Of a DNA stretch of 64,000 nucleotides, positions 26,416 through 64,000 are shown piece by piece. The translations under genes and the position numbers were made by a program. Source of the stretch: a virus (Duplodnaviria; Caudoviricetes); IMG/VR virus record IMGVR_UViG_3300002597_000001, positions 44,779 to 108,778 of that record, one strand, 5' to 3'. The number at the start of each line of letters is the position of its first letter. Positions within the stretch are counted from its first letter, which is position 1. The notes under the pieces were generated by a model. The model made no database searches. It worked only from the letters and a program-made list of their open reading frames with translations, and was not told the DNA's origin.

Positions 26416-26677
26416 CATTCTGTTGCTTGTTGACCGCCAATGCGGCGGCGGATAGGTCTCTCGGCCTATCTCTGCGGTTTCATGATTAGGTTATAGCCGC
26501 AGTTCAGATCATACCTTCACCCCTGTCCGGGGGCCAACATACGCCCATAGTTACCTATGTGGCTGTGATCGTTACGGGATCTCTTGCGAGTCTTACCCAC
26601 GGGGTTGTCCACCTCTGGAGTTTCCCCGTTTTGAGTTGGTTTCTTCCGCTTATCACTAAGCGGTGGGGCATAAATTC
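26416..26677 (-). ncRNA. ORF-less group I intron (262 nt) in the CHAP lysin gene
   Basis: P1 GGGU/GCCC; CTCAAAACGGGGAAAC, ACAACCCCGTGGG, P7 GATCA/TGATC; omega-G 26416; splicing gives NKNG-Y-EWC. Confidence 0.9.
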
Positions 26678-30687: not shown

Positions 30688-32492
30688 CAGCTCACCACCC
30701 GTAGATAGATGTCACCATCAGATCCCAACGAAGATGACGGTGTAGAAGAGCCAGTATAGTAATGCTGGATCACGACAGTTCCCATTACGCTTGTGATGCG
30801 GTCGTCGTCCGCACTGTCGCCAATCTTAACAGTCGTACCGCTCAGAATCTTATCCGCGCTCAGGCCGGATACAGTAACGCCCTTGATGGTCTGCGCCCCG
30901 GTCAGATACTGCGATGCGCTGATCGTTTGGTCCGAAGTAGACGGATAGTAAGTAGCCGCTGCCTTAGTGGTAACACTAGCAGTCAAAGAAACCGATGAGT
31001 TTCCCGCCGTGCCCGAACTAATATATCCAGCGGTGGATACGTTTGGTGTGACGCTCACCGTCTTACTAAGAGTTAGCGTGTTTGTTCCCGTGTTTACGGT
31101 GGCGCTACTCCCAGAGATAGTAGATGGCGCAGTGGCAGTGCCAGCAGGGATGGACGCCGAAGCGTAATTGGTAACATCCTGTGTCCCAGAGCCTGTCACG
31201 TTCAGCGTACCGCTTACCAGCTCTGATGCAGATACACTCACGGCTGTTCCCGTTTGTGTGTTACCAGCGATCCAGCCCGTTGTGTTCGTCACACTCGGGG
31301 TTATTGAGATGCTGTGGTTACTCACGGCCCCCTTTGTTGCCGTTGGCGTTCCCTCGATACCACGCCCGACAGACGCATAACAACTTTCTTCATAATATCC
31401 AGCCGCCACCAGCACGATTTCATCGTCCACGGACAGGTCTGTTCCATCACGCCTGGTAATACCAGAGCCAACATATGTCGAGCTGATTGGAGATACCGTC
31501 ACAGAGCTAAGACCGTCGTATCCACTGTCTGGTGTTACAACAACCTCAGACTCAGTTGGGCTTGCGCTTTTTGCTTGTGTGCTGAATGTATCGCCTTCAA
31601 CATTGACCGTAACGCTGGAAAAATAATTGCCAGAAGTTGGCGTATATGTCCCATTAGCAGTGATACTTTTAGTCTCCGTTGGAACGGCAGACACCGTAAC
31701 CGCACCGGTTGTATACTTTCCCTGTGCAACCGCGACCTGCGAAGAAGACGATGGGGTTATGGTCGCCGCAGCTTGTCTTGAAACACCAGATCCAACGTAG
31801 GTCGAACTGATTGCCCCGACTTCTACGGAGCTAAGGCCGTCAAATCCAGAATCGGCAACGATGGTCTGGGAGGATTCTGTCGGAGTTGCAGATTTGCTTT
31901 GTAGAGAAACAGACCCACCACCGGTCGGGACATTTACAACGACAGAGTTAAAATAAGAACCGGTTTCTGGTGTATATGTACCATTTGCAGTAATCGTGGT
32001 TTCGTCTGCGTTAACAGCCGCCACTGTCACATTCCCAGTAGTGAACAACCCGGCCTGTACGGCAGTTTGCGCACTATCTCCTGGCGTCACCGTCTTGGCT
32101 GCCTGCGTACCCAATTGGCGTGTGTTGCTAGACTGAGATGTTGCCACATACCCCGCCGTTTGCGACACAGATGCGGTAATCAGGCCACTTGCGTTTACAT
32201 TGATCGTTGGATCTGCCAAAGATACCGTTGGAATCGATTTGGACGCCGCGTCCGCATAATACCCGGCAGCCGCAGTTACCGTATTGCCAGAGACGGTCAT
32301 ATTTGAATCTGTCCTCGTTGGAATGGTACCTGTATATTTCGTACCTTTAGAGTATGATGTATATGGGGACAGCATTTGCGCACCGGATGTCAGGGTAGCA
32401 TCATCTGTATTGATCCCACCACCAGATTCTTGTGTACCCACAATTACTTTCCCAATTTTGTTATTACCAATATATAAACTCATCCCGATCAC
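30687..32492 (-). CDS. tail fibre/adhesin-like repeat protein
   Basis: T/S-rich repeats (ITANGTYTP, DSG.DGLSSV.V..ISSTYVGSG); C-terminal G.DGDIY. Confidence 0.75.
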   Translation of the reverse strand: MIGMSLYIGNNKIGKVIVGTQESGGGINTDDATLTSGAQMLSPYTSYSKGTKYTGTIPTRTDSNMTVSGNTVTAAAGYYADAASKSIPTVSLADPTINVNASGLITASVSQTAGYVATSQSSNTRQLGTQAAKTVTPGDSAQTAVQAGLFTTGNVTVAAVNADETTITANGTYTPETGSYFNSVVVNVPTGGGSVSLQSKSATPTESSQTIVADSGFDGLSSVEVGAISSTYVGSGVSRQAAATITPSSSSQVAVAQGKYTTGAVTVSAVPTETKSITANGTYTPTSGNYFSSVTVNVEGDTFSTQAKSASPTESEVVVTPDSGYDGLSSVTVSPISSTYVGSGITRRDGTDLSVDDEIVLVAAGYYEESCYASVGRGIEGTPTATKGAVSNHSISITPSVTNTTGWIAGNTQTGTAVSVSASELVSGTLNVTGSGTQDVTNYASASIPAGTATAPSTISGSSATVNTGTNTLTLSKTVSVTPNVSTAGYISSGTAGNSSVSLTASVTTKAAATYYPSTSDQTISASQYLTGAQTIKGVTVSGLSADKILSGTTVKIGDSADDDRITSVMGTVVIQHYYTGSSTPSSSLGSDGDIYLRVVS

Positions 32493-44887: not shown

Positions 44888-45988
44888 TTACATATACGTA
44901 TACTTTGATAATGAACTTCCGCCATTCATGCGGTCAATTGTAATTGACTGAATGAACTTCTCGAACTCGCGGCTCTGCATCTGTTTCCGCAACTGAGCAA
45001 CGAAGTCATTGTAGTTCTCGACATGTTCAATTGGGATATTAAGCTGCCCAATGGACACATCCCCGCCTTGTATTGGCGTGTAAGCAGACTTGCCCATCGC
45101 CGCCGACAGCGCGGAGGGAATCGAGACCTGAGAGCGGTTGCTGATTGCACGAAGCGAGTCGCGAAGATCGATAAAGTTTTTGGTGTCGGCTGCGCTCAGA
45201 ATAGACTCGGGGCTAGAGGAAGAGCCGTCAACCCATGCAGGACCCGTAAAATCAATCAGACCGCCGTTCTTGTACTTCGGCGAGTTAAAGGTCGGATACG
45301 CAGACAGCGCTGGCTTACCGCGCTTAACCCACGCCGCGTACAGTTCGTTATAATGTGCGTTGATATAATCCTGCACCTTCTCGCCCGTGCCAGCCGGATA
45401 CTTGGAGTTAATACGCCCGACCCGAACGGGGGCAGTTCCCCATCCGGTAGCGCTACTGCCGTAGATCCAGATTGCCTCTGCAATCTTGGCGATTGTATCG
45501 CTCGTCACCTGATCATTCTTTGTGACAGCCGCCGCTGGTTTTGTGGTTGTGGTTTTCGTGGTCGTAGTCTTTGCCGGTGCCTTCGCCGCCGTTGTCGTGG
45601 TCGTACTCGACACCTTGGCCTTTGCAGTGGCGTCGCTCTGAGCCTTAATTGCTCCCATCTTTTCGGCAATTTTTCTCAATACCTCATTGATGGTCGTAAA
45701 GCTAGTAGTAAAGCCATCTCCATACGCCTTCATCACAGCTATCGGTCCGTTTTCACCAGCAATCTTAGTCCAAATATCAGACATGCCTTGTGTTAACTTA
45801 TAGCCAACACTATCTGCTGTGGTGAACAGTGTATTCCGAATGCTGCTTGTATCACCACCGACAAGATCTGCGGCAAGGTTCTCACCAAGCGCCGCCATGG
45901 CCTCATTAACAGATACAAAGCCGCCGCCATTGTCTATTGCAAACGCATTGATGACAGCGATCACATCGTTCAGAAGCGTGTCTACGTT
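44888..45988 (-). CDS. tape measure protein, exon 3
   Basis: In frame after IStron removal (ERFD|NVDTLLNDV); Y..GG..DFTG.AW.DG....PE..L C-terminal motif. Confidence 0.88.
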   Translation of the reverse strand, partial: NVDTLLNDVIAVINAFAIDNGGGFVSVNEAMAALGENLAADLVGGDTSSIRNTLFTTADSVGYKLTQGMSDIWTKIAGENGPIAVMKAYGDGFTTSFTTINEVLRKIAEKMGAIKAQSDATAKAKVSSTTTTTAAKAPAKTTTTKTTTTKPAAAVTKNDQVTSDTIAKIAEAIWIYGSSATGWGTAPVRVGRINSKYPAGTGEKVQDYINAHYNELYAAWVKRGKPALSAYPTFNSPKYKNGGLIDFTGPAWVDGSSSSPESILSAADTKNFIDLRDSLRAISNRSQVSIPSALSAAMGKSAYTPIQGGDVSIGQLNIPIEHVENYNDFVAQLRKQMQSREFEKFIQSITIDRMNGGSSLSKYTYM

Positions 45989-46130
45989 CTGAACCTCCCA
46001 CGACTAAAGTCGCGGGTTCCCGGTCAAGGCTCCCAACGAAGCCAGATTCCCCGGGCTATCCCCGTAGTTCCTACGGTTCTACATATGTTATTAGGACGCA
46101 AGTCCTTGAACTAAAATATTGTTAGCAGCA
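45989..46130 (-). ncRNA. TnpB omegaRNA scaffold (5' limit approximate)
   Basis: Structured right end downstream of and overlapping the tnpB 3' end, as established for IS605 elements. Confidence 0.65.
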
Positions 46131-47182
46131 TTTACATCTCTATCGTGGTGTGTTCCACAACAAGGGCAAGTCCATTCTCTGACAGACAAATCCTTTGCCT
46201 CCTTGTTGATGTAACCACACACGCTACACGTCTGACTGCTTGCATACCACTTATCTACTCTTTTGATTTCTCGTCCATACCAGTTAGCCTTATATTCTAA
46301 CTGTCTGGTGAATTCGCTCCATGAGACATCTGCGATATTACGAGCAAGACTATGATTTTGGATCATATTCTTTACCTGCAAATCTTCAACGCAAATAATG
46401 TCATGCCCACGAATTAGCTCTGTAGATAATTTCTGCAAGTAGTCATTTCTCTGATTGGCGATATGCTCCTGAAGCCTAGCAACTTTGATTCTCGCCTTAT
46501 TCCAATTCTTCCCACCTCTTGTTTTTCGAGACAGGCTTCTTTGCAATTTAGCAAGTTTATCTAATGACTGCTGTAGATACTTCGGGTTTGCATATTTTTT
46601 GCCGTCAGATGTAATAGCGAACTCTTTGATTCCAAGATCAATCCCGACCACAGAGCCAGTCAACGGCAGTTGCTCCATCTCTACATCTGCACAGCAAAGG
46701 GAAATATAATACTTCCCTGAAGGCATTTGCGAGATCGTTGCATTGAGTATCCTACCATTTGGAATCTGTTTGTCTCTGATTTTTACAAAACCAAGCTTCG
46801 GAAGCTTAATATGATCTCCAAAGAATTCGATATTATTATTTGTAAAAGATGTCCTATATGAGTGTTTATGAATTTTCTTTGACTTAAACTTCGGGTAACC
46901 AGAATGCTCAATAAAAAATTTCTTATAAGCATTGTCTAAATCTCTTAAAGAGTTCTGCAATGCGAACTTATCAACCTCTTTTAGCCATTCTAATTCACGC
47001 TTTAGTTGTGTCAAATCCGCACAACACTTATTGTAAGTCAAAGTTTCTTTGCTGTCTTCATATAGCTTAATGCGTTTGGAAAGGTAGTAATTATATACAA
47101 AGCGAGAACATCCAAATGTTTTAGCAATAAGCATTCGCTGTTCCTTATTTGGATATGCTCGAAACTTGTATGCCTTTTCCAT
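46091..47182 (-). CDS. tnpB: RNA-guided endonuclease TnpB
   Basis: KAYKFR.YP, RuvC GIDLG / VEDL / DRDVNAA all intact, CSVC..CPCC Zn finger. Confidence 0.95.
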
Positions 47183-47190
47183 ATGCTCAC

Positions 47191-47592
47191 CTACTTTTCT
47201 TTTTGACTACGTACGTATTCGATGATTTGCGATTCTGTTTTCTCAGATACTGTGGCAACGAAATAGCTTGGATTCCATAGGTGACCATTCCACAATTGCC
47301 TCCGCAACGTATCTCCATACATCTTGAATAAATATCTCGCCGAAACACCCTTCATGGCTTTGATCATATTCGGGATGTAGTGCTGCGGGGAGCAATCGAT
47401 TAATAAATGGATATGGTCTAAATCGCCATTACACTCAAGTATCCTAAACCCATTGTCTTGTGCAATGTTGTTGAGAATGTCAAACAACGAACACTCAACA
47501 GATGGGGTCAAAACCTTACGCCTATATTTCACGCACCAGACAATGTGGTACTGGATCGAATATACATAGCCGCGCCCATGTGTTACATCCAC
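47191..47592 (-). CDS. tnpA: IS200-type Y1 transposase TnpA
   Basis: YHIVW..KYRR, DHIH, KG.S, LW..SYF, Y..SQ; GTG start with GAGGTG RBS and TTGTCA-17-TATTAT promoter. Confidence 0.95.
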
Positions 47593-48156
47593 TGAAATCA
47601 CCTCAGTGTAATAATAACATATGTATAAAGAAATGACAAGTGATCTCAACAATAATTTACATTTTATTAATAACATATGTAGAGCCATAGGACCCACTTT
47701 AATCGTATTAGAGGTTGTCGTTCACATAGGGTCGCTAGTCCTATGCAGTTCTCTTATGAACTTCTTACACTTTCATGTAAGCACAGACTATATCTTATCC
47801 CTCGGCATTATCCGTTAGGGCCTATCCACTTCGGACACCAATAGCTTGTGCCCTACTTCCCTCAAGAGGAATAGTCGTTGAACCTTGCCTTTCAGCCTTG
47901 GCTGCTGATTGCCCATTATATAGCGTTTAGGATTTAACCATGCGCCATCTATTCAATTTTTTCTGCTTTCGCAACATTCACGAACACACCATTTGAGGCG
48001 TCACGTTGTAGTTTGAATAGCTTTAGGGGTTTCCAGCAATTCAAATAGTATTGGGCAGGTGTAACCAAACCTGCCGCTACATACACGTTTCCGTATATGC
48101 TGACTTGCTGATTGCCTTACTCATGACTAAAGTCACGAGTGTGCGGCAATCGGTCA

Positions 48157-51100
48157 ATCAAACCGCTCATTGAGTGCAAGCTCATAGTCTGTATAGAGGT
48201 CGTCGAGCAACTGCTTCTGATCGCTGATATAGCGGTCATACTGAGTTTCCTCAAGGTCAGACCGTGCATCATCTAGGCTAGACCGAAGTTTTTGGACATT
48301 GAGCCGCCCCTCTTCTGATGTGTCACCGCTATAGGCAGACAACTGTTTCTCAAGAGACGCGATATTCTTGGACTGCTCTTCAATCTTGGCTTGATAATCG
48401 TGGAGCGACTTAGCGCTACTGAGGCTGTCGTTGTATTGATCTATCAGCGTTTTGAGAGCATCAAGCTGTTTGTCAATGCCATTATGAACAAGGTCGATGA
48501 TGGCATCGCGCTCATCCTCTGCGGCTGAGATAGACTCCTGCTGAAGCTTGAGCAGTTCTTCGCGCCGCTTTAGAATCTCGGTGTTATACGGATCATCCGC
48601 CAGTTGCTTATTGACTTTGAGCATCTCGTCGCGGTACTGATCCGCCTGTGCCATGAGGATGTTATAATTCTGGCCGCGCAGACCCAAGGTAGCCATACCT
48701 GCATCTGTGAGTTTTCCGCCGTCATCAAAGAGCTCGTCGCGGTCGAGGAGGTCAATCAGGAAGTTGGACTCCTGCGTGAGCTGGGAGATTCTGTCCTGTA
48801 CAAAGTCAAAATAGCCCCACTCAACCTCACGCATGGTCTTGGCATATTCGAGAAGGCTTGTGTTGGCTTCATCAATAGCTTCTTTGACACCATTTATCTC
48901 GGCCTGCATTGAATACCACGCCGAACTATACATCTCTATCTCGCCGCTATTCATAGCCTCAGACATGGCGTCTACCATATCGTCAAGCTGTTTATTCAAG
49001 ATAGAGATGTTTTGCTTTTCGACATTAGATAGCGCGGTATAATACTCCGTGCTGATGAGATACCCCTTCTGCTCAAGCTGCTCGATTCCGTTCTGATATG
49101 TGTTTGTGAGGTGTTCATACAGTTTGAGCTGGTTGTTGTACTCCTCTTGTACATTGTCAAAGTTGTCCTGATATAGTTGCGCCATTGACTCGTGGAGCTC
49201 ATCTACAGCATCGCTGGCATCAAGGGCTTTGTCATAAAGGTCCTTGTATTGCTTTATCTTTTCGTTAAGCTCTTTGTCAGTAATGGTTTCAAGGTTGATC
49301 TTCCCCTCGCGTACCAGTGCTTTATAGGACTCATCTAGGCTGATGGTCTCGGCGGCATGCATATACTCATCATACGCCTGCTGTTGATAATCTATCTTAT
49401 CCGCAACTGTGGCAATTTCTTCGCCAAGAGCACTTGTGCGGGTTGTGAGAGACTTAAACGTAGACCCAGCAATACGAGCAAGGCTTTTGATTCTGCGCTC
49501 GATACGATCAAGCAGGACTTCAATCCAATCGAGATCTTCTGCGAAATCATCGGCAGAAGAAGACGCCTTAGATGAGGCTGTTTTGTTACCGTTGTAGGAA
49601 GAGGAAGATTTGTAGGAGTTAGAAGAGCTCGAAGAAGACGAGCTAGACCCTAGGGAAGTAGTTGATGATGTCTTCCTGCGTCTCTTACCGCCAGACCCAG
49701 AATCAAATGCGGTTCCGGTCGCCAACGCATTTCCGCGATTCTTACCATACTTAATTCGTCCGTATTTAAATATCTGCTCAGTTTGTTCGGCATTGAAAAT
49801 AATGTCGCCCTTCTTGTAATTAAAGAAGCCAGCACCATTTTCACCGATGGTATAATAATGGCCATCACGTACAAGGAGCTCAGTTCCTAATTCTCCGCCA
49901 AGAGCAACACCACTGTTTTTGGTTCCCCAGTAGCCATGAGCCATTGCAGTGCCTCTGGCGTGTGCGGTTCCAGAGAATCGTGCAGTACCATATGCACCAC
50001 CACGCCCAGTATCACCACGAGCAACATAATTCACATAGCGTGTGATGCTAGAAAAATATGTTGGGAGATTACTAGTATTCGGCGTATATGTTACAGTACG
50101 TGTTCCGCCATACGTTACAGCATTAACAGCGTCGATAAGCCCCGTTTCTGGAGTATACGTTGTTGTCCTGTTACCACCATCTGATTTTGCATCTTCCGCG
50201 TCTGTGTCTTCGGTATCAGCAAAGTAAGTAACGAACACAGACGGATCCATACTTTGCAAGCTTGCCAGCAGAGAATCAGCAGACGTTGTATCCAAATTAA
50301 GGTCGGCAGGAATAACCGCTTCCATGCTTTGGATTTGCGCAAGAAGCGCATCCGCATCCGCCTGTGCCTGCCCATCATCAATGCCAAGCTTTGCCGTTGC
50401 ATCTGCCGCCGCAAAGCTTTGCAACAAGCCAAGGAGCATATTCAGATCTCCCTCGGCAGTTGAGGAATTCACATCAACAGACATCAGCGTCGGGTACTCA
50501 AGACTCAGCTTCTCGGCCTCAAGCGCACCAAGAACTTGGACGGCCTCTTCAGCCCCAGCAAGTTCCATGTTGATAGTACCATCACTATTTCGCATACCAT
50601 CAAGGATGGATTGCACCTCTGTTATTTGGCTGTTAATACTGTCAAGGTCTGTCGAGTCAATATCAAATGATATATCTGTGAGACCGAGGCGTGTGAGCTG
50701 GTCGGCAGATTCTTGAGCTGTTTCCTTGAAACTCTGGAGTGCCGAAAGTGGAGTGTCAATATTGACATTCATCCCAGCATCTTTCATGGCTTGCTCAAGG
50801 AGTTGGATGGATTCAACAGACATGCCGGTTAGTTCGGATACACGTTGTAAATCGGACGCAGTCCAATCAAATGCATACGACCCATCGTCACCCACTTGCA
50901 CCAGACTGTCATCCAATGTGTCTACAGCGTCGAGGAAATTGTAAAGACCATCCGAGGAAAGCTTTTCGCTGTCTTCATCATATTGGAAGAAATCCATAAT
51001 GCTGAAATCAGTACCGGCAATCTTTTGTGTCAGCCTATCGAAGTCTGCATAGACATCACTGGTACGAGCGCTGGCCGCAAGCATTAGGTCAAGATACTCC

Positions 51101-53698
51101 GTTACTTCAGAATCAGACACCCATCCAAGATCAATAAGCTCTTTAACATTTTCGTAGCTATCGCCGATATTGGCGTATGCATCTCTGTTGTCGCCGCTGG
51201 ACTGAGCCTGTACAAACTTGTTGTAAGCAGAGGTTAATCCTTCGTACTGTGCCTGTAGCTCCAGCGCACTTTCGATTTGCGCTTCAAGCCCATTTACATT
51301 AGCCAGTGCGTTATTATACTCTTCTGTTCCAGCGGTATAATTTGACAGAGCTTCTGTGGCCGTGTTATACTCATTAATAAGGGCCTCGAGCTCATTCTGC
51401 ATTTCTGTTTTTGTATGCCTCTCGTACTCATCATTGAGTTCTTGCAATGCCTGAGTATTGAGTCGCACACCGGTCGTTGTTTTCTCAAAAAGATCAAAGG
51501 CGTTATAACCATCTAGATCTGAGAACATATCCTTGATAGCCTGGATGGAATCAGTTGACAGCCCGGTATCCGAAGCAGACTCCGACAGCGCAGTATAGAA
51601 CTTAGAAGCGGCTTCTGAGGCTTCCTCAAACCCGGTCTGCATCTCCTCGAGCGTAGCCGATACCGCCTCAGATGTTTCGGCAGACGTTGTTTTCGCCGCA
51701 TCCAACGCAGACATCCAGTCATCCATAGTCCATGCGCTGGTGTCATTCGACTGCTTAATACTGTAGAGAAGCTCGATCTCTTCACCAGACAGAGAATCAA
51801 TCCAATTACTCCATCCATCTTTTAACCACTTCTGACTGTCAGAAGAGAAGTCACTTACATCAAGCGCACCCTTGAGCTGGTTGCGGACCTCGTCAAAATC
51901 AAGCAACCCCATCTCAGCTTTAATAGAATTGATGACATCAATAATATTAACACCGGCGGCTTGAGCCGCAGCAGTTAATTCGGGGAACTGCGCCATGATG
52001 GCGTATAACGACAAATCGTGCTTGTTGGAAAGCGCTTCGCGTAGCGCATCAAAAGACCCCGACAGCGTGGGCCTGGACAGGAAACTCTGCACCTTTTCGA
52101 GTGCCTCGGCCCGTTTGCCGAGTTCTGTCAAAACCCATTGACCATCGTCTCCGCGTTCTTCATAGCCCGCCCTAAGCTTTTCAAGATGATTGATCTGCTC
52201 TATGATTTCTTTAAATCCACTGGCTTCTGCCAAACCAGCATCGACAATGGATTGTCTATACTGGTCAATAAGACTCCAATTGTCTGAAATCTGTGTCGCA
52301 AACTCTGAAATCTGATCCTGATTATTCTTGTATTCTTCGGAGTTGTGGTCAACTATTTCACCCTGACGCTCTTGTAAATCATTGAGTGTTTCCTGCTTGC
52401 GAATAGTTGCCTCGATTATATTAACGCTTTCACTTTGATTTTCCTTAACAAGTTCTGCGGTTTTACCGCCATCAAATGCGGCCATTTTCCCGGATGTGGA
52501 CATTGCCATCGATTGTCCAACAGAATATAAGATGTCATTCCAGAACCCGTGCTTTACAGTCTGTCCACCGCCAAACGCCATGAAGCCCTCGTTCTCCAAC
52601 GCAGAACGAGCCGCGTTTGCTGCGGCCTCAGCTTCAACTTGGGCTATTTGTTGTTTGTACGCTAACTGGCGCTCAAGGCTGGATTCTGTCTCATACAGTT
52701 TGTCCAGTTCATTCTGCTCGACGAGCGTTAAACCACCCTTTGCATTCAACTCGTCAATACGAGATCCTGTTGATTGCAGTTCGTTTTGGATAGACTGAAT
52801 TTCACTTTGTGTTTGCTCGTAATTTTGCCTTGCCTCATCTGCGGACTTGGCAGCTTCGTCAAAGGTGGTTGTTAAGGCGTCATAAGCAATGGCGGCAGCA
52901 CCAACTACAAGCGCAACGCCACCAATAACGCCAAGGAATGTCGCTAATGCGGTTGTCGAGACACCGATAGATGCTGCCATTGCTTCGAATTTTAAACTGG
53001 TCGCAGCCGCAACATCACCGAGACTTGTGATTCCTGTCGCCGCGCCAGTTGTCATTGTCAATGCAGATAATATTTCAGACGATTTTAATACTTTAATTAT
53101 TTTGCCAAGATTTTTAATTAGGTCAAGCCCTGTCAGTGCGCCAATTGCTACCGGGAGGGCTCCGAATTTGTTCACAAGATTATCAATGACTTCGATGGCT
53201 TTTGTGCCGAAGTCTACGATACCTTTAGTGAGGTCAGAAGAAAGGACATCACGAGCCAAGACTTGAGCACTTGTTTTGAGCTGCTCAATCTTCTTCTCGG
53301 TAGTGTCCATGACTACTTCGTTAGCTTTGGCGGCGGTTCCGGCGGCATTTGTCGCATCAGCAAGCGCCTTTTCTGCGTCGCCAAAGTTCTGCATAATACT
53401 TGAGATAACCGTTAAACCACGAGTGCCACCAAGTATCTCCGAGATACGAGCTTGCTGAGTTTGAGACAACTGATCCCAGACTTGGCTGAGTTCTTTGAAG
53501 ATATCATACACGTCCTTATATGTGTTATCATTTATCATGATATCCACACCGGACATGGCTTTGATTTCTTCACGATACTTACTCATACCATCGGCCAGAT
53601 CACTATAATCCTCGCCAAGCTCTTCGAGGTCAGACGTGGATTTTGTAATACGTGCAGAGATTGTTTTTAAGGCAGTTCCCACTACCTGTGCATTTTGC
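48157..53698 (-). CDS. tape measure protein, exon 2
   Basis: Long helical Ala/Glu-rich ORF; GTALKTISARI; in frame with exons 1 and 3. Confidence 0.9.
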
Positions 53699-55145
53699 CG
53701 GTCTGTTACTTTCGGCTATGGCTGCCTACTGACCATCAAATGATGGCGGAGAAGTCTTTCGGCTTCTCTCTGCGATTTTATTATTCCAGATATAGTCGCA
53801 GTTCTGACCATCCGTTCACCCATTTACATGGGGCTGGCATACGCCCCGTAGTTACCTACGGGGCTGTGGTCGATACAGGGATTGTGATATTAGATATAAA
53901 TGACGACAAAAGATCCGGTATACGATTGATTTCGTAATACCAGATCTCTAAAAGCGGGATATTATATTGTGATGCATATTCTCGTTTTAATCTATCATGT
54001 TCTTGCTGAATTTCAAATTGCGATTGCCCACCAAATTTATCAACAGGATGGTCGTGCTGTTCTCCTTGAAATTCAACTAAAGCATCATATTCTTTAAGAT
54101 AAAAATCATATGATAAGTTGCCGCCCCTAGGGCCAAACAACCCATCATATCTTTTCCCAAATGTATATAAGATATTATTTGCATCTAAATAATTTCTAAT
54201 CATTCGCTCACCATGTGGCATATTGCAATATGGGCAACCCTCTCCCTTATATAAATTGAATGGAATTCCATTATATATCTTATGACATTCGCCACATTCA
54301 ATCTCAACCGGAGTTTTTGAGTTTATATATTTCCCGACTGGGATTGCGGTCGGGATTGCCTCTTTAAGACGACGTTCAAAATATGCTTGTGTTGCTCTGC
54401 TACTGTCACCAACGCGCTTGTTCGCGCAATTCGGGCACCCAAAACCAGTATGTAAATTATAACCTCTTGCTTTCCATTTGTGATGGCACACTAAGCATTC
54501 GCAATCAATATAATCTTTAGCTGTCTTGTATTCAGAAAGAAGCATAATATTTGGGCTTTTCCCTTTGATACGATCAACAAATGAATCGTTAGACAACCTT
54601 TGAGAAATCCCGCGCCTCTCCACTGCACATATAGGGCAACATGAGTTATGCAAAATACTATCCGCATAAGTATCCCACTCGTGTGCGCAATCAGTGTTCT
54701 TAAAATGCATTATAGATTTTTGATTGTAATACTCTCCAGATACTTCCACATTTGGATGTAACACATTTACTTTTATAAGGTATAATTGTTCTCTAAATTT
54801 TCTGAGCTCTGGTTTTGTTAGGTGATCGCATTTGGGACATCCGCTACTCCCATATAATAGTGTTTGTGCTTTGCAACTATGTTCGTGCCCGCACTTCTTG
54901 CAACGAACAGTAACATATTCTTTTGGCCCATTTGGATATGTCAACAACTCAAGCGTTGGGTATCCTTTACTTATAATGTCATATATCTGCTCATTAGTAT
55001 AATAACCTTGTTTATTCAAAAAATCCTCCCTATAATACACGGTCTAATATCACAATCTTACCCACGGGATTGTCCCTCTGGTAGGAGTTTCCCCGTTTTG
55101 AGCCAGTTCCTCTCCACTTATTACTAAGCGGCTCGGCACAATTCT
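53699..55145 (-). mobile_element. group I intron in the tape measure gene carrying an endonuclease ORF
   Basis: P1 UCGGU/GCCGA; CTCAAAACGGGGAAAC, ACAATCCCGTGGG, P7 GACCA/TGGTC; omega-G 53699; splicing gives ANAS-V-QNAQVVGTAL. Confidence 0.92.
53856..55040 (-). CDS. intron-encoded endonuclease: Zn-ribbon repeats + Vsr/PD-(D/E)XK-like C-terminal domain
   Basis: Four C..C...CP.C-type repeats; HGE..I, YDFY, VEFQGEQH, D..K; probable start is TTG 55019. Confidence 0.82.
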   Translation of the reverse strand: MYYREDFLNKQGYYTNEQIYDIISKGYPTLELLTYPNGPKEYVTVRCKKCGHEHSCKAQTLLYGSSGCPKCDHLTKPELRKFREQLYLIKVNVLHPNVEVSGEYYNQKSIMHFKNTDCAHEWDTYADSILHNSCCPICAVERRGISQRLSNDSFVDRIKGKSPNIMLLSEYKTAKDYIDCECLVCHHKWKARGYNLHTGFGCPNCANKRVGDSSRATQAYFERRLKEAIPTAIPVGKYINSKTPVEIECGECHKIYNGIPFNLYKGEGCPYCNMPHGERMIRNYLDANNILYTFGKRYDGLFGPRGGNLSYDFYLKEYDALVEFQGEQHDHPVDKFGGQSQFEIQQEHDRLKREYASQYNIPLLEIWYYEINRIPDLLSSFISNITIPVSTTAP

Positions 55146-56242
55146 ACCGACGCGTTTGCGGCTGCAAACAGAGCCATGGATTTCTCCATGCTCGTACCAG
55201 CAGCCATAAGTGCCGCACCAGATCTCTCTGATGCAGTAACGATCTCTTCGCTGCTAATAGCGTAGTTCTTGCCAATAATCGAGATTACGTCAGCGATGTG
55301 TTCCGCCTCAGATACATCTTTGCCCCATCCCTTCAGGATTGATGTGATGCCCGTCGTAGCGGAAGACACATCCATATCTGCTATATTACCAAGCACGGTC
55401 GCCCACTTAGACAGGTCAAGAGACTCATTAAGGCTGTATCCAAGACGACTAAACGTCTCAACGGACCCTAACATATCCTTGACTTCAACACCAAGCTGTT
55501 TTGCGCTCTCTGCGCTTCGCTCAAAAAACGTATCTAACTGACTGCCGCTGGCCCCGGTAACAACCTGAAGCTGTGCCAGAGCACTCTCGATTTCAATTGC
55601 ACTCTCTACCATCTCTCTTGCGGCTTTTCGCAATTCTCTGGCCGCGAGAGCAACGCCAGCTTTAGCCAGTCCGCCAAGTACAGTACCTCCAAGGGCCTGT
55701 TTTAACGCTTTGCCCATGTCGGAAACAGTCGTGCTTGTTAGTTTGGCCTCAGATTGCAACTCTCTAAACTCAGCACCTATTTGTTTAATTGCGGCGGAAT
55801 CTCCAGCCTTTATTGCCTCCGAGAGTCTCCTTTGCAGGTCATTGAGTGCCGCCCCGTATTTTTCTGTATACTGAGTATTCTCTTTAAGCCAATTGGCCAT
55901 ATTATTTGAGAGTGTTTTGCCATTTGTGGCTGAAAGGGTTTGTTTTTGTGCATCACTCAAAGCCCTTGCCTGTTCTTTAGCGAGTTGCTGGATTTGTTTG
56001 GCCTGCTGTTTGGCCCAATCGTCGGATGCCTTTTGTTGTGCAGTAGCCATGCTTTTTGCACTGCTCTCTGCGGCTTTCTTACTTGCATTTTCTTGGGCTC
56101 TTTGTAAACTGGCCTCAAGCTGTTTTGCAAATTCCCCTTCAGGGGTAAGCTTTACTTTAAATTCTTTCCCGCTGAACCAACCTTGGACATTTGATTCAGT
56201 AGCGGGATCAACACCAAGTATGACTCTTACGTCTTCTGCCAT
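55146..56242 (-). CDS. tape measure protein, exon 1 (spliced total ~2579 aa)
   Basis: TP901-type TMP core: ESALAQL..VT...F..LGYS. Confidence 0.9.
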
Positions 56243-62863: not shown

Positions 62864-64000
62864 CTGTTGTATTTAAGCTAATAGTTCGTCAATTATTGTT
62901 TCAATATTGTCATAATCCGTGTAGGGGATTCTAATCAGCATAATGCCGTTATTGCGACAATATTCATTTTTGATACTATCTCTCTTCTTTATCAGCTCGA
63001 ATTGTTTTTGAACCTTTTCGGCATCACCACAACCAAAATCGACAGGGAAGAAGTGTTGTTGCCCGTCGAATTCAATAACCATATTCATTTTGCTAATATA
63101 AAAATCAAATGGGAGCTTTCGTTTGTAGACACAATCATCGAATTTCTTCTGCCTCGTATACTCCAACCCATATTTCCTAAGCACTCGCCCAATCTCACGT
63201 TCTCCATGAGATTCGTTACAACCCGGACAGCCCCTTTGCCGCAATAGGGCATTAACAGATGAAGTCCATTTGCATCCGCATTTTCTGCAAGTACAGTTTA
63301 TTGGAGATTTGTTGTTTATGTATTCTCCATCAATGTCGATGTCTGGATTCACTTGCCAGACTTCCTTTTGCGCTTTCTCAAGAGTTTTTCTTGTCACTCC
63401 AGCACACTCAGGGCAACCCACACCATGTAATAGATGATGCGGTCTCGGATTCCACACATACCCACACTTTTTACACCCACACAAAACAGGTGTGTCGGTA
63501 TTAATATACTCTCCAAGTACCTCGATGAAAGGCTGTGTCTCACTCATCAACACTCTAAATGTTTTCGTTGTAAGACGCTCTTTTCCAGAACACCGAGGGC
63601 ACTTTTTCAATTTTGCAATAGAGTGGGCTTCTGGACTCCAGACATAGTGGCAATCCAAGCACTCAGTCAGTATTGGCTGATGCATGCCTTGATATTCAGA
63701 CAAGAACCTCAAGTGCGGATGAGTTATTCTCTTCGCGGCAACAAATTCTTCGTGTGTTATTTGCCTCGACATTAAACCTCTTTTCTGTTGTGAGTCCCTA
63801 CACTGACCCACATTTTGACGAACTAAACAGGCGCTACCCTGTGCTTGTTGCACATAGCAACCTCATGGTTTCCCATGAGCATAGACCATATCTTCACCCT
63901 GTCTGAATACAGGGGCGCACCACTTCGGGTATCAATCGCTTATACCCTACTTCCCTTAACGGGAATGGCCGTTGAACCTTCTCCTGTTCGGAGCTTGGCT
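62864..64000 (-). mobile_element. group I intron in the major capsid gene (5' part outside the window)
   Basis: GGTTCAACGGCCA...AAGATATGGTCT core at ~63890-63980; probable omega-G 62864. Confidence 0.85.
62873..63772 (-). CDS. intron-encoded endonuclease: Zn-ribbon repeats + Vsr/PD-(D/E)XK-like domain
   Basis: Three C..C..W...CP.C repeats; SHGE, FDFY, IEFDGQQH, RD..K...LIRIPY; ATG 63772. Confidence 0.85.
   Translation of the reverse strand: MSRQITHEEFVAAKRITHPHLRFLSEYQGMHQPILTECLDCHYVWSPEAHSIAKLKKCPRCSGKERLTTKTFRVLMSETQPFIEVLGEYINTDTPVLCGCKKCGYVWNPRPHHLLHGVGCPECAGVTRKTLEKAQKEVWQVNPDIDIDGEYINNKSPINCTCRKCGCKWTSSVNALLRQRGCPGCNESHGEREIGRVLRKYGLEYTRQKKFDDCVYKRKLPFDFYISKMNMVIEFDGQQHFFPVDFGCGDAEKVQKQFELIKKRDSIKNEYCRNNGIMLIRIPYTDYDNIETIIDELLA

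Follow-up and report, generated by a model that had tools for sequence, protein, structure and literature searches.

A complete IS605-type IStron interrupts the tape-measure gene of a temperate phage from gut or rumen

The stretch of DNA analysed here (the window; 64,000 nt) comprises bases 44779-108778 of the IMG/VR virus record IMGVR_UViG_3300002597_000001, which has a length of 108,778 bp and is rated 100% complete. Within the window, the gene for the tail tape measure protein (TMP) is interrupted by an IStron, i.e., a group I intron joined to a transposon with genes for the transposase TnpA and the RNA-guided nuclease TnpB, and the question arises how TMP can be made from such a gene and whether TnpB is likely to carry the element into related phages. 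The ends of the record share a 30-base overlap and the assembly is therefore circular, and a tyrosine integrase with a Tn916-type DNA-binding domain is encoded, so the phage is temperate. A 109-kb temperate phage of the gut or rumen carries an IStron inside its tail tape-measure gene; very probably the element, an autonomous group A IStron in which a group I ribozyme precedes an ISDra2-like transposon of IS200/IS605 type, has transposed whole into a TTGAT sequence of that gene. The IStron is genuine and intact and is an ordinary member of its class; its mechanism is already known and it does not represent a new kind of system. Both IStrons in phages (c-st, D-1873) and group I introns in TMP genes are already known, and the element is distinctive only in its completeness, tnpA, tnpB and both terminal hairpins all being present.

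The extent of the element is defined by the following features (window coordinates).
45989-48156, minus strand: whole IStron, 2,168 nt; boundaries from TMP colinearity and from the right-end alignment
48157-48161, minus strand: TTGAT, the transposon target, target-adjacent motif (TAM) of TnpB and last five bases of the 5' exon; predicted P1 partner of the intron guide sequence
48119-48140, minus strand: left-end subterminal hairpin with a 9-bp stem in the predicted fold; its core recurs in related elements and it is the presumed recognition element of TnpA

Located directly after TTGAT, the IStron has TTCAG as its 3' terminus (...GGTTCAG at 45989), after which AACGTAGACACGCTTC follows. A first-pass annotation of this DNA, made from the letters alone, had claimed a complete 2168-bp IStron between TTGAT and TTCAG in a phage TMP gene, and this holds to the base (45989-48156, minus strand). 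The upstream reading frame closes with ...GAG CGG TTT GAT and the element itself opens with TGA, a stop codon in that frame. Removal of the IStron fuses ...ERFD to NVDTLL... in frame, as had been claimed too, and comparison with homologous TMPs bears this out; in 119 of 119 the two residues that flank the joint, one closing the upstream frame and one opening the downstream frame, find their counterparts side by side, and the junction peptide is gapless throughout. The joint sits within the most conserved C-terminal motif of TMPs, in which the residues Y, E, N, R, and D vary little or not at all. When seven related right ends are aligned, similarity vanishes exactly past ...GGTTCAG, and an alignment of nine related IStron introns reveals a common left hairpin, a conserved intron guide sequence AGUCAG and a common ribozyme core. 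A right-end hairpin (45997-46016) has a ten-base core in common with the left hairpin and is shared with related elements as well. The GC content of the IStron is 0.41 and that of both TMP insertions 0.40-0.41, compared to 0.47-0.51 for the exons.

The interrupted gene is organised as follows.
55146-56242, minus strand: TMP exon 1, matching phrog_4211 positions 441-762 and PF10145
53699-55145, minus strand: first TMP intervening sequence, 1,447 nt, containing an open reading frame (ORF) for an HNH/CapR/treble-clef endonuclease (53856-55019, 387 aa)
48157-53698, minus strand: TMP exon 2, matching phrog_4211 positions 771-2352
44888-45988, minus strand: TMP exon 3, coding for the C-terminal 366 aa and the stop

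PHROG 4211 matches the ORFs 55124-56242 and 48154-53682, between which the ORF for the HNH-type endonuclease lies. Among 8,000 candidates scored, the exon 2 protein has 1,595 homologs at E <= 0.001, the best 120 of which are 52-58% identical, and exon 3 matches the C-terminal part (about 330 aa) of proteins of 2,000-3,900 aa (1,858 matches, 41 of them at E <= 1e-30). Once spliced, the three exons constitute an open ORF of 7,740 nt that encodes 2,579 aa without any frameshift or stop, and members of the homolog group measure 2,577-2,602 aa. Full-length homology to TMPs and a position in the tail module, with an ORF for a tail-fibre-like protein of 1,732 aa downstream, identify the gene as that of a TMP. 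Judging from these frames, full-length TMP is obtainable only from a spliced mRNA, and to this extent the earlier proposal that tail assembly depends on IStron splicing stands; it had, however, missed the second intervening sequence in the TMP gene, because of which tail assembly would need two splicing events.

The intron part of the IStron and the transition to its transposon part comprise four features.
47764-48144, minus strand: group I ribozyme core, matching Rfam RF00028 (Intron_gpI) over the whole model (1-253) with 77.2 bits and E 7e-18
47718-47723, minus strand: GAACGA motif, which marks the attachment of the insertion sequence (IS) after P9.2 and is invariant in the alignment of related introns
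47668-47697, minus strand: 5' arm (30 nt) of an inverted repeat (IR) stem around tnpA and tnpB; its partner is the 30-nt arm 46064-46093, to which it is 87% complementary
46064-46093, minus strand: 3' arm of the IR stem, overlapping the first of the stem-loops predicted for the guide RNA scaffold

The gathering score of RF00028 is 50 bits. The core aligns with the introns of IStrons in gut Firmicutes and in viral contigs, and alignment with other IStron introns would place it in subgroup IA2. In both minimum-energy and centroid folds a P1 is predicted, in which UGAUU of the exon end pairs with AGUCA at 48101-48105 and the exon U(-1) stands opposite G. A GAACGA-type motif is the point of IS attachment after P9.2 in all IStrons (PMC4227781). 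Part of the 5' IR arm occurs twice, the second, incomplete copy lying at 47612-47628, and two alternative long-range helices with 46064-46093 are possible. Between the two copies of the arm, ahead of tnpA, lies a promoter-like site (47639-47611; 10/12 matches, extended -10), to which we give little weight because such sites are no commoner here than in shuffled sequence.

The transposon part comprises the two genes and the right end with its flank.
47191-47592, minus strand: tnpA, coding for a Y1 HUH transposase of 133 aa with a GTG start after GAGGTG; PF01797, E 1.9e-38
46091-47182, minus strand: tnpB, coding for a protein of the RNA-guided nuclease family of 363 aa; PF12323 (HTH), PF01385 (OrfB_IS605), and PF07282 (TNB)
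45989-46135, minus strand: predicted omega RNA scaffold and right end, with three stem-loops in the fold; the hairpin 45997-46016 belongs to it, as does the terminal G, which is the 3' splice site
45973-45988, minus strand: 16 bases at the start of exon 3 (AACGTAGACACGCTTC), the predicted guide and target; position rule from PMC10690162

The best solved relative of TnpA is TnpA from ISDra2 (2xm3, E 4.6e-41), with which the H-I-H, NPSY, and catalytic Tyr motifs align. A longer TnpA ORF of 168 aa starting at 47697 was considered and rejected, since similarity to the ISDra2 protein sets in at residue 2 of the 133-aa form and the extension overlaps the IR stem. For TnpB, the best solved relative is again the ISDra2 protein (8bf8/8exa, E 7.5e-106). 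TnpB contains the motifs GIDLGIK, CVEDL, and HDRDVNAA as well as the two zinc-finger CxxC pairs (CSVCG and CPCCG); all of these can be aligned to 9yyg, a TnpB-type chain from an RNA-guided nuclease designed by AI. We take the three RuvC acidic motifs to correspond to the catalytic positions D191, E278, and D361 of ISDra2 TnpB. Each of the genes tnpA and tnpB is preceded by its own ribosome-binding site. The paired subterminal hairpins, full intron core and intact TnpA/TnpB motifs listed by the first-pass annotation were thus all recovered, in the fold, in Rfam and Pfam and in the matches to ISDra2 structures.

The stem-loops of the right end (predicted fold, z about -2.2) are kept with compensatory changes in seven related elements and match no Rfam family. 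That TTGAT would serve as TAM and the right flank as guide, as proposed previously, agrees with the rules published for ISDra2-type TnpB and for IStrons (PMC10690162, PMC13521648). The phage genome contains no second TTGAT-flanked match to the guide of at least 10/16 bases.

The mechanism that we propose is the published IStron model (PMC10690162, PMC13521648) mapped onto the sequence of this phage. In the late transcript, TTGAT would pair with the intron guide AGUCA and form P1 with its U.G pair, while the IR stem of 30 bp would loop out tnpA and tnpB and bring the right end to the ribozyme core, so that splicing past the terminal G would restore the TMP frame. The in-frame TGA, as first codon of the intron, would bar ribosomes from entering it. 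Alternatively, the last 150 nt or so of the element would fold as omega RNA and be bound by TnpB, with the first 16 bases or so of exon 3 serving as guide. TnpB so guided would cut TTGAT-flanked copies that lack the IStron, and recombinational repair would reinstate the element; the most likely targets would be the donor joints left by TnpA excision, in replicating phage genomes or in the prophage. Splicing and guide formation should exclude each other because the 3' splice site divides scaffold from guide and because the first scaffold stem-loop shares bases with the 3' IR arm, so that only one of these two folds can form at a time. Competition between splicing and guide production had been proposed for this locus before; the sequences do share a site, but the idea is not a new one, as this conflict is the main result of PMC10690162 and PMC13521648 and was worked out, for TnpB/omega RNA and splicing, on C. 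botulinum IStrons (PMC10690162).

Group A IStrons are defined by a TTGAT, ATTAT, or TTTAT target, a TCAG terminus, and IS200/IS605 palindromes at both ends; they also have a U.G splice-site pair inside a continuous P1, carry the IS after a GAACGA-type motif past P9.2, possess an IR stem round their ORFs, and are often inserted in frame, opening with a stop codon (PMC4227781). All of the group A characters for which the phage IStron was inspected were found in it, namely the 5' ribozyme, an IS200/IS605 module on the same strand, target and terminus, palindromes, GAACGA motif and IR stem, and the predicted U.G pair of P1. It has the same architecture, target and ends as CdISt1 of Clostridioides difficile and its relatives in Enterococcus, Megamonas, Megasphaera, and Fusobacterium (Braun 2000; Tourasse 2014, PMC4227781), also described as CdiIStrons (PMC10690162). 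CdISt1-type elements, in contrast, reside in bacterial chromosomal genes and not in a phage structural gene, and most C. difficile copies have lost or truncated tnpA, whereas that of the phage IStron is intact. The IR arms also differ, being 30 nt long at 87% complementarity in the phage IStron compared to the 6-10 bp reported for group A (PMC4227781). With ISDra2 (IS8301) of Deinococcus radiodurans, which consists of TnpA, TnpB, and omega RNA, the phage IStron shares the TTGAT target and TAM, similar hairpin ends, and a right-flank guide, which in the IStron is predicted; ISDra2, however, lacks an intron, and its TnpB has 408 aa versus 363 aa in the phage.

The first-pass annotation had regarded IStrons as mainly chromosomal, a view that phage cases contradict. 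CbISt3 and CbISt4 reside on the temperate phages c-st and D-1873 of Clostridium botulinum (PMC4227781), although these are group B elements of IS607 type with a serine recombinase as TnpA, targets ending in GG, CGG as terminus and an IR stem that is long and AU-rich. Two IMG/VR contigs contain IStrons of the same family as the one described here, one of 2,179 nt at another site of a TMP gene of PHROG 4211 (L006, 3021-5199) and one of 1,768 nt without tnpA in a gene for the terminase large subunit (L010, 3440-5207). Clostridioides phage ES-S-0173-01 (CP067352.1; L143, 3488-5389) carries a group A IStron of 1,902 nt in its terminase gene, with only a remnant of tnpA, and its GenBank record leaves the element unannotated. 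Related bacterial IStrons are common in gut Firmicutes. No paper was found in which IStrons and tape measure genes are mentioned together.

Some observations weigh against an IStron that transposed into this site and is still functional. Mobility of the IStron in the phage is unproven, as neither an IStron-free allele nor an excision junction was found; in a search for empty-site alleles, as advised by the first-pass annotation, the exact 20-mer across the predicted joint of the exons occurred in neither the viral nor the metagenome contig collection. Exon 3 alone finds no relatives in the viral contig collection, and exon 2 finds none among deposited phages by blastn. Splicing and omega RNA production are both predictions from sequence. 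The codon preceding the Asp at the insertion (48160-48162, minus strand) is TTT for Phe; 118 of 119 homologous TMPs possess Leu here, and the insertion site is therefore a lineage-specific variant. TTT GAT makes the TTGAT target in the phage, and among relatives only the Leu codon CTT could do so. The metagenome-assembled genome could, moreover, be that of a defective prophage.

The last point leads to an explanation in which the record represents a decaying, cryptic prophage whose TMP is inactivated by one or both insertions, splicing being absent or too inefficient. Apart from splicing being a prediction and from the unusual Phe, this would fit the reported precedence of guide RNA formation over splicing, which is easily lost (PMC13521648). 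We consider it improbable, given that the three exons remain open without frameshift or stop, that the ribozyme matches the full model, that P1, IR stem, and terminal G are intact, and that the record is a complete circle. Far less credible still is a chimera in which the assembler joined the IStron into the TMP gene. The record is a metagenome assembly, IS605-type ends are repeated, and elsewhere in the genome there is another TnpB element whose right end is similar, but the similarity of the two elements amounts to just about 72% over 91 nt. Furthermore, the junctions fall exactly at the canonical TTGAT and ...TTCAG, the frame is restored with zero gap in a conserved motif, and the TMP exon-2 protein is recorded in identical form from two contigs, the longer of which measures 108,797 bp.

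It remains to consider whether the IStron acts against other phages. In the first-pass annotation this took the form of an RNA-guided homing drive, in which TnpB would cut the TMP gene of IStron-free relatives during mixed infection and would thereby copy the element in or exclude markers, as homing endonucleases of T-even phages do. An intact TnpB, a scaffold, and a TAM-flanked guide make this mechanistically possible, TnpB-driven retention by cut-and-copy has been published (PMC10690162), and IStrons recur in essential late genes of other phages. Comparison with relatives does not lend sequence support to it, however. A profile built from 16 TMPs retrieved 79 viral loci with a related TMP, and the site of the IStron is unoccupied in all 79. 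Three loci that appeared broken near the site (L095, L096, and L131) were rejected as candidates, their DNA being uninterrupted and just divergent in the motif. TTGAT occurs at the homologous position in only 16 of 76 related TMP loci, and the best match to the guide among the 76 genes reaches 11/16 bases with at most 8 contiguous from the TAM. Because no relative holds an element at the site of the IStron, there is no trace of spread by homing. Together with the missing empty-site allele, these results make homing against co-infecting relatives unlikely. We likewise regard as doubtful that, in the replicating DNA pool and in mixed infections, the IStron is an RNA-guided gene drive or marker-exclusion device among close phages, with the late transcript setting the balance between splicing and guide.

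Returning to the transposition of a whole group A IStron, the simplest history is a single, fairly recent TnpA-mediated event that brought the element into a lineage-specific TTGAT. TnpB would then mainly serve to retain the element after excision, and the cutting of co-infecting phages is possible only for near-identical siblings that lack the IStron.

In this context, the finding contributes an IStron of IS605 type that is intact throughout, is probably autonomous, and interrupts a late gene essential to a temperate phage. Considered together with the copies in L006, L010, and ES-S-0173-01, it shows that phages of gut and rumen are regular carriers of IStrons and that large essential late genes are favoured. 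As phages multiply to many copies and recombine freely, they provide a natural setting for the question of super-Mendelian inheritance by TnpB, and also for the trade-off between splicing and guide RNA where the interrupted gene is indispensable.

The first intervening sequence of the TMP gene is probably an intron as well. Splicing from 55146 to 53698, with U preceding the 5' site and G preceding the 3' site, is predicted to restore ...AAANASV|QNAQVVGTALK..., the core motif of PF10145, and the product is gapless against 26 homologs. The window contains an ORF-less paralog of 262 nt (26416-26677, minus strand) that is 76-82% identical to the first intervening sequence. The two show compensated changes in several helices, and a P1 with U.G pair is predicted in both, with different 5' exons. 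Rfam gives no group I match for the first intervening sequence, taken whole or as its 3' part alone, nor for the paralog. Because P1 folds, the paralog covaries, and the motif is exactly restored, we think it likely that the first intervening sequence is a group I-type intron of a subclass that the Rfam model misses. It was also examined as an intein, a reading that was rejected in view of three in-frame stops after exon 1 and of an endonuclease ORF with its own ribosome-binding site and frame. TMP-IVS1 to TMP-IVS3 of Bacillus cereus-group prophages are self-splicing introns that occupy up to three sites per TMP gene, some of them with homing endonuclease genes (PMC2504315). The first intervening sequence of the phage fits this pattern, and TMP-IVS introns lack a transposon module. 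The 262-nt paralog interrupts a gene for about 374 aa with a choline-binding repeat downstream, and its removal joins the frames via a split Tyr codon; the gene may encode a cell-wall-binding or lysis protein.

With regard to the host, the nearest relatives of TnpB are found in metagenome-assembled genomes (MAGs) of Oscillospiraceae, Tyzzerella, and Faecalimonas (also given as Oscillospiraceae and Lachnospiraceae), at no more than 74% identity, and the TMP relatives listed stem from gut and rumen metagenomes at about 52-58% identity, one of them being annotated as tape measure protein in a Ruminococcus MAG. Because of these TMP and TnpB relatives, the host is probably a member of the gut Clostridia. 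The first-pass annotation had advised looking for copies of the IStron in the host chromosome; none was found, the best TnpB relative among representative genomes being 74% identical.

No second copy of the IStron exists in the phage genome. A second IS605-type element is present at genome positions 30984-32272 (plus strand; L004, 305-1593), beyond the window. It contains TnpB only, 46% identical to that of the IStron, with intact RuvC motifs and ATA at the position of the start codon, and its left and right hairpins are similar to those of the IStron. It has neither an intron nor tnpA and sits directly past a stop codon. TnpA of the IStron might mobilise this element.

A further group I intron extends across the ends of the circular record, from 62873-64000 of the window into genome positions 1-226 (L002, L003), with partial Rfam matches of 30 and 27 bits. 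It splits a gene for about 330 aa (phrog_16565/4088) in the region of the head genes, and it is followed by an endonuclease ORF of 326 aa that is homologous to the ORF in the TMP intervening sequence. Among the contigs with related elements, L007 holds an intron-less, TnpB-only sister of the L006 element. In another viral contig, a HEARO (IscB-associated) RNA adjoins a TnpB element (L013, 8587-8797), and in a Tyzzerella MAG contig a group II intron adjoins an IStron (L017, 5486-5777).

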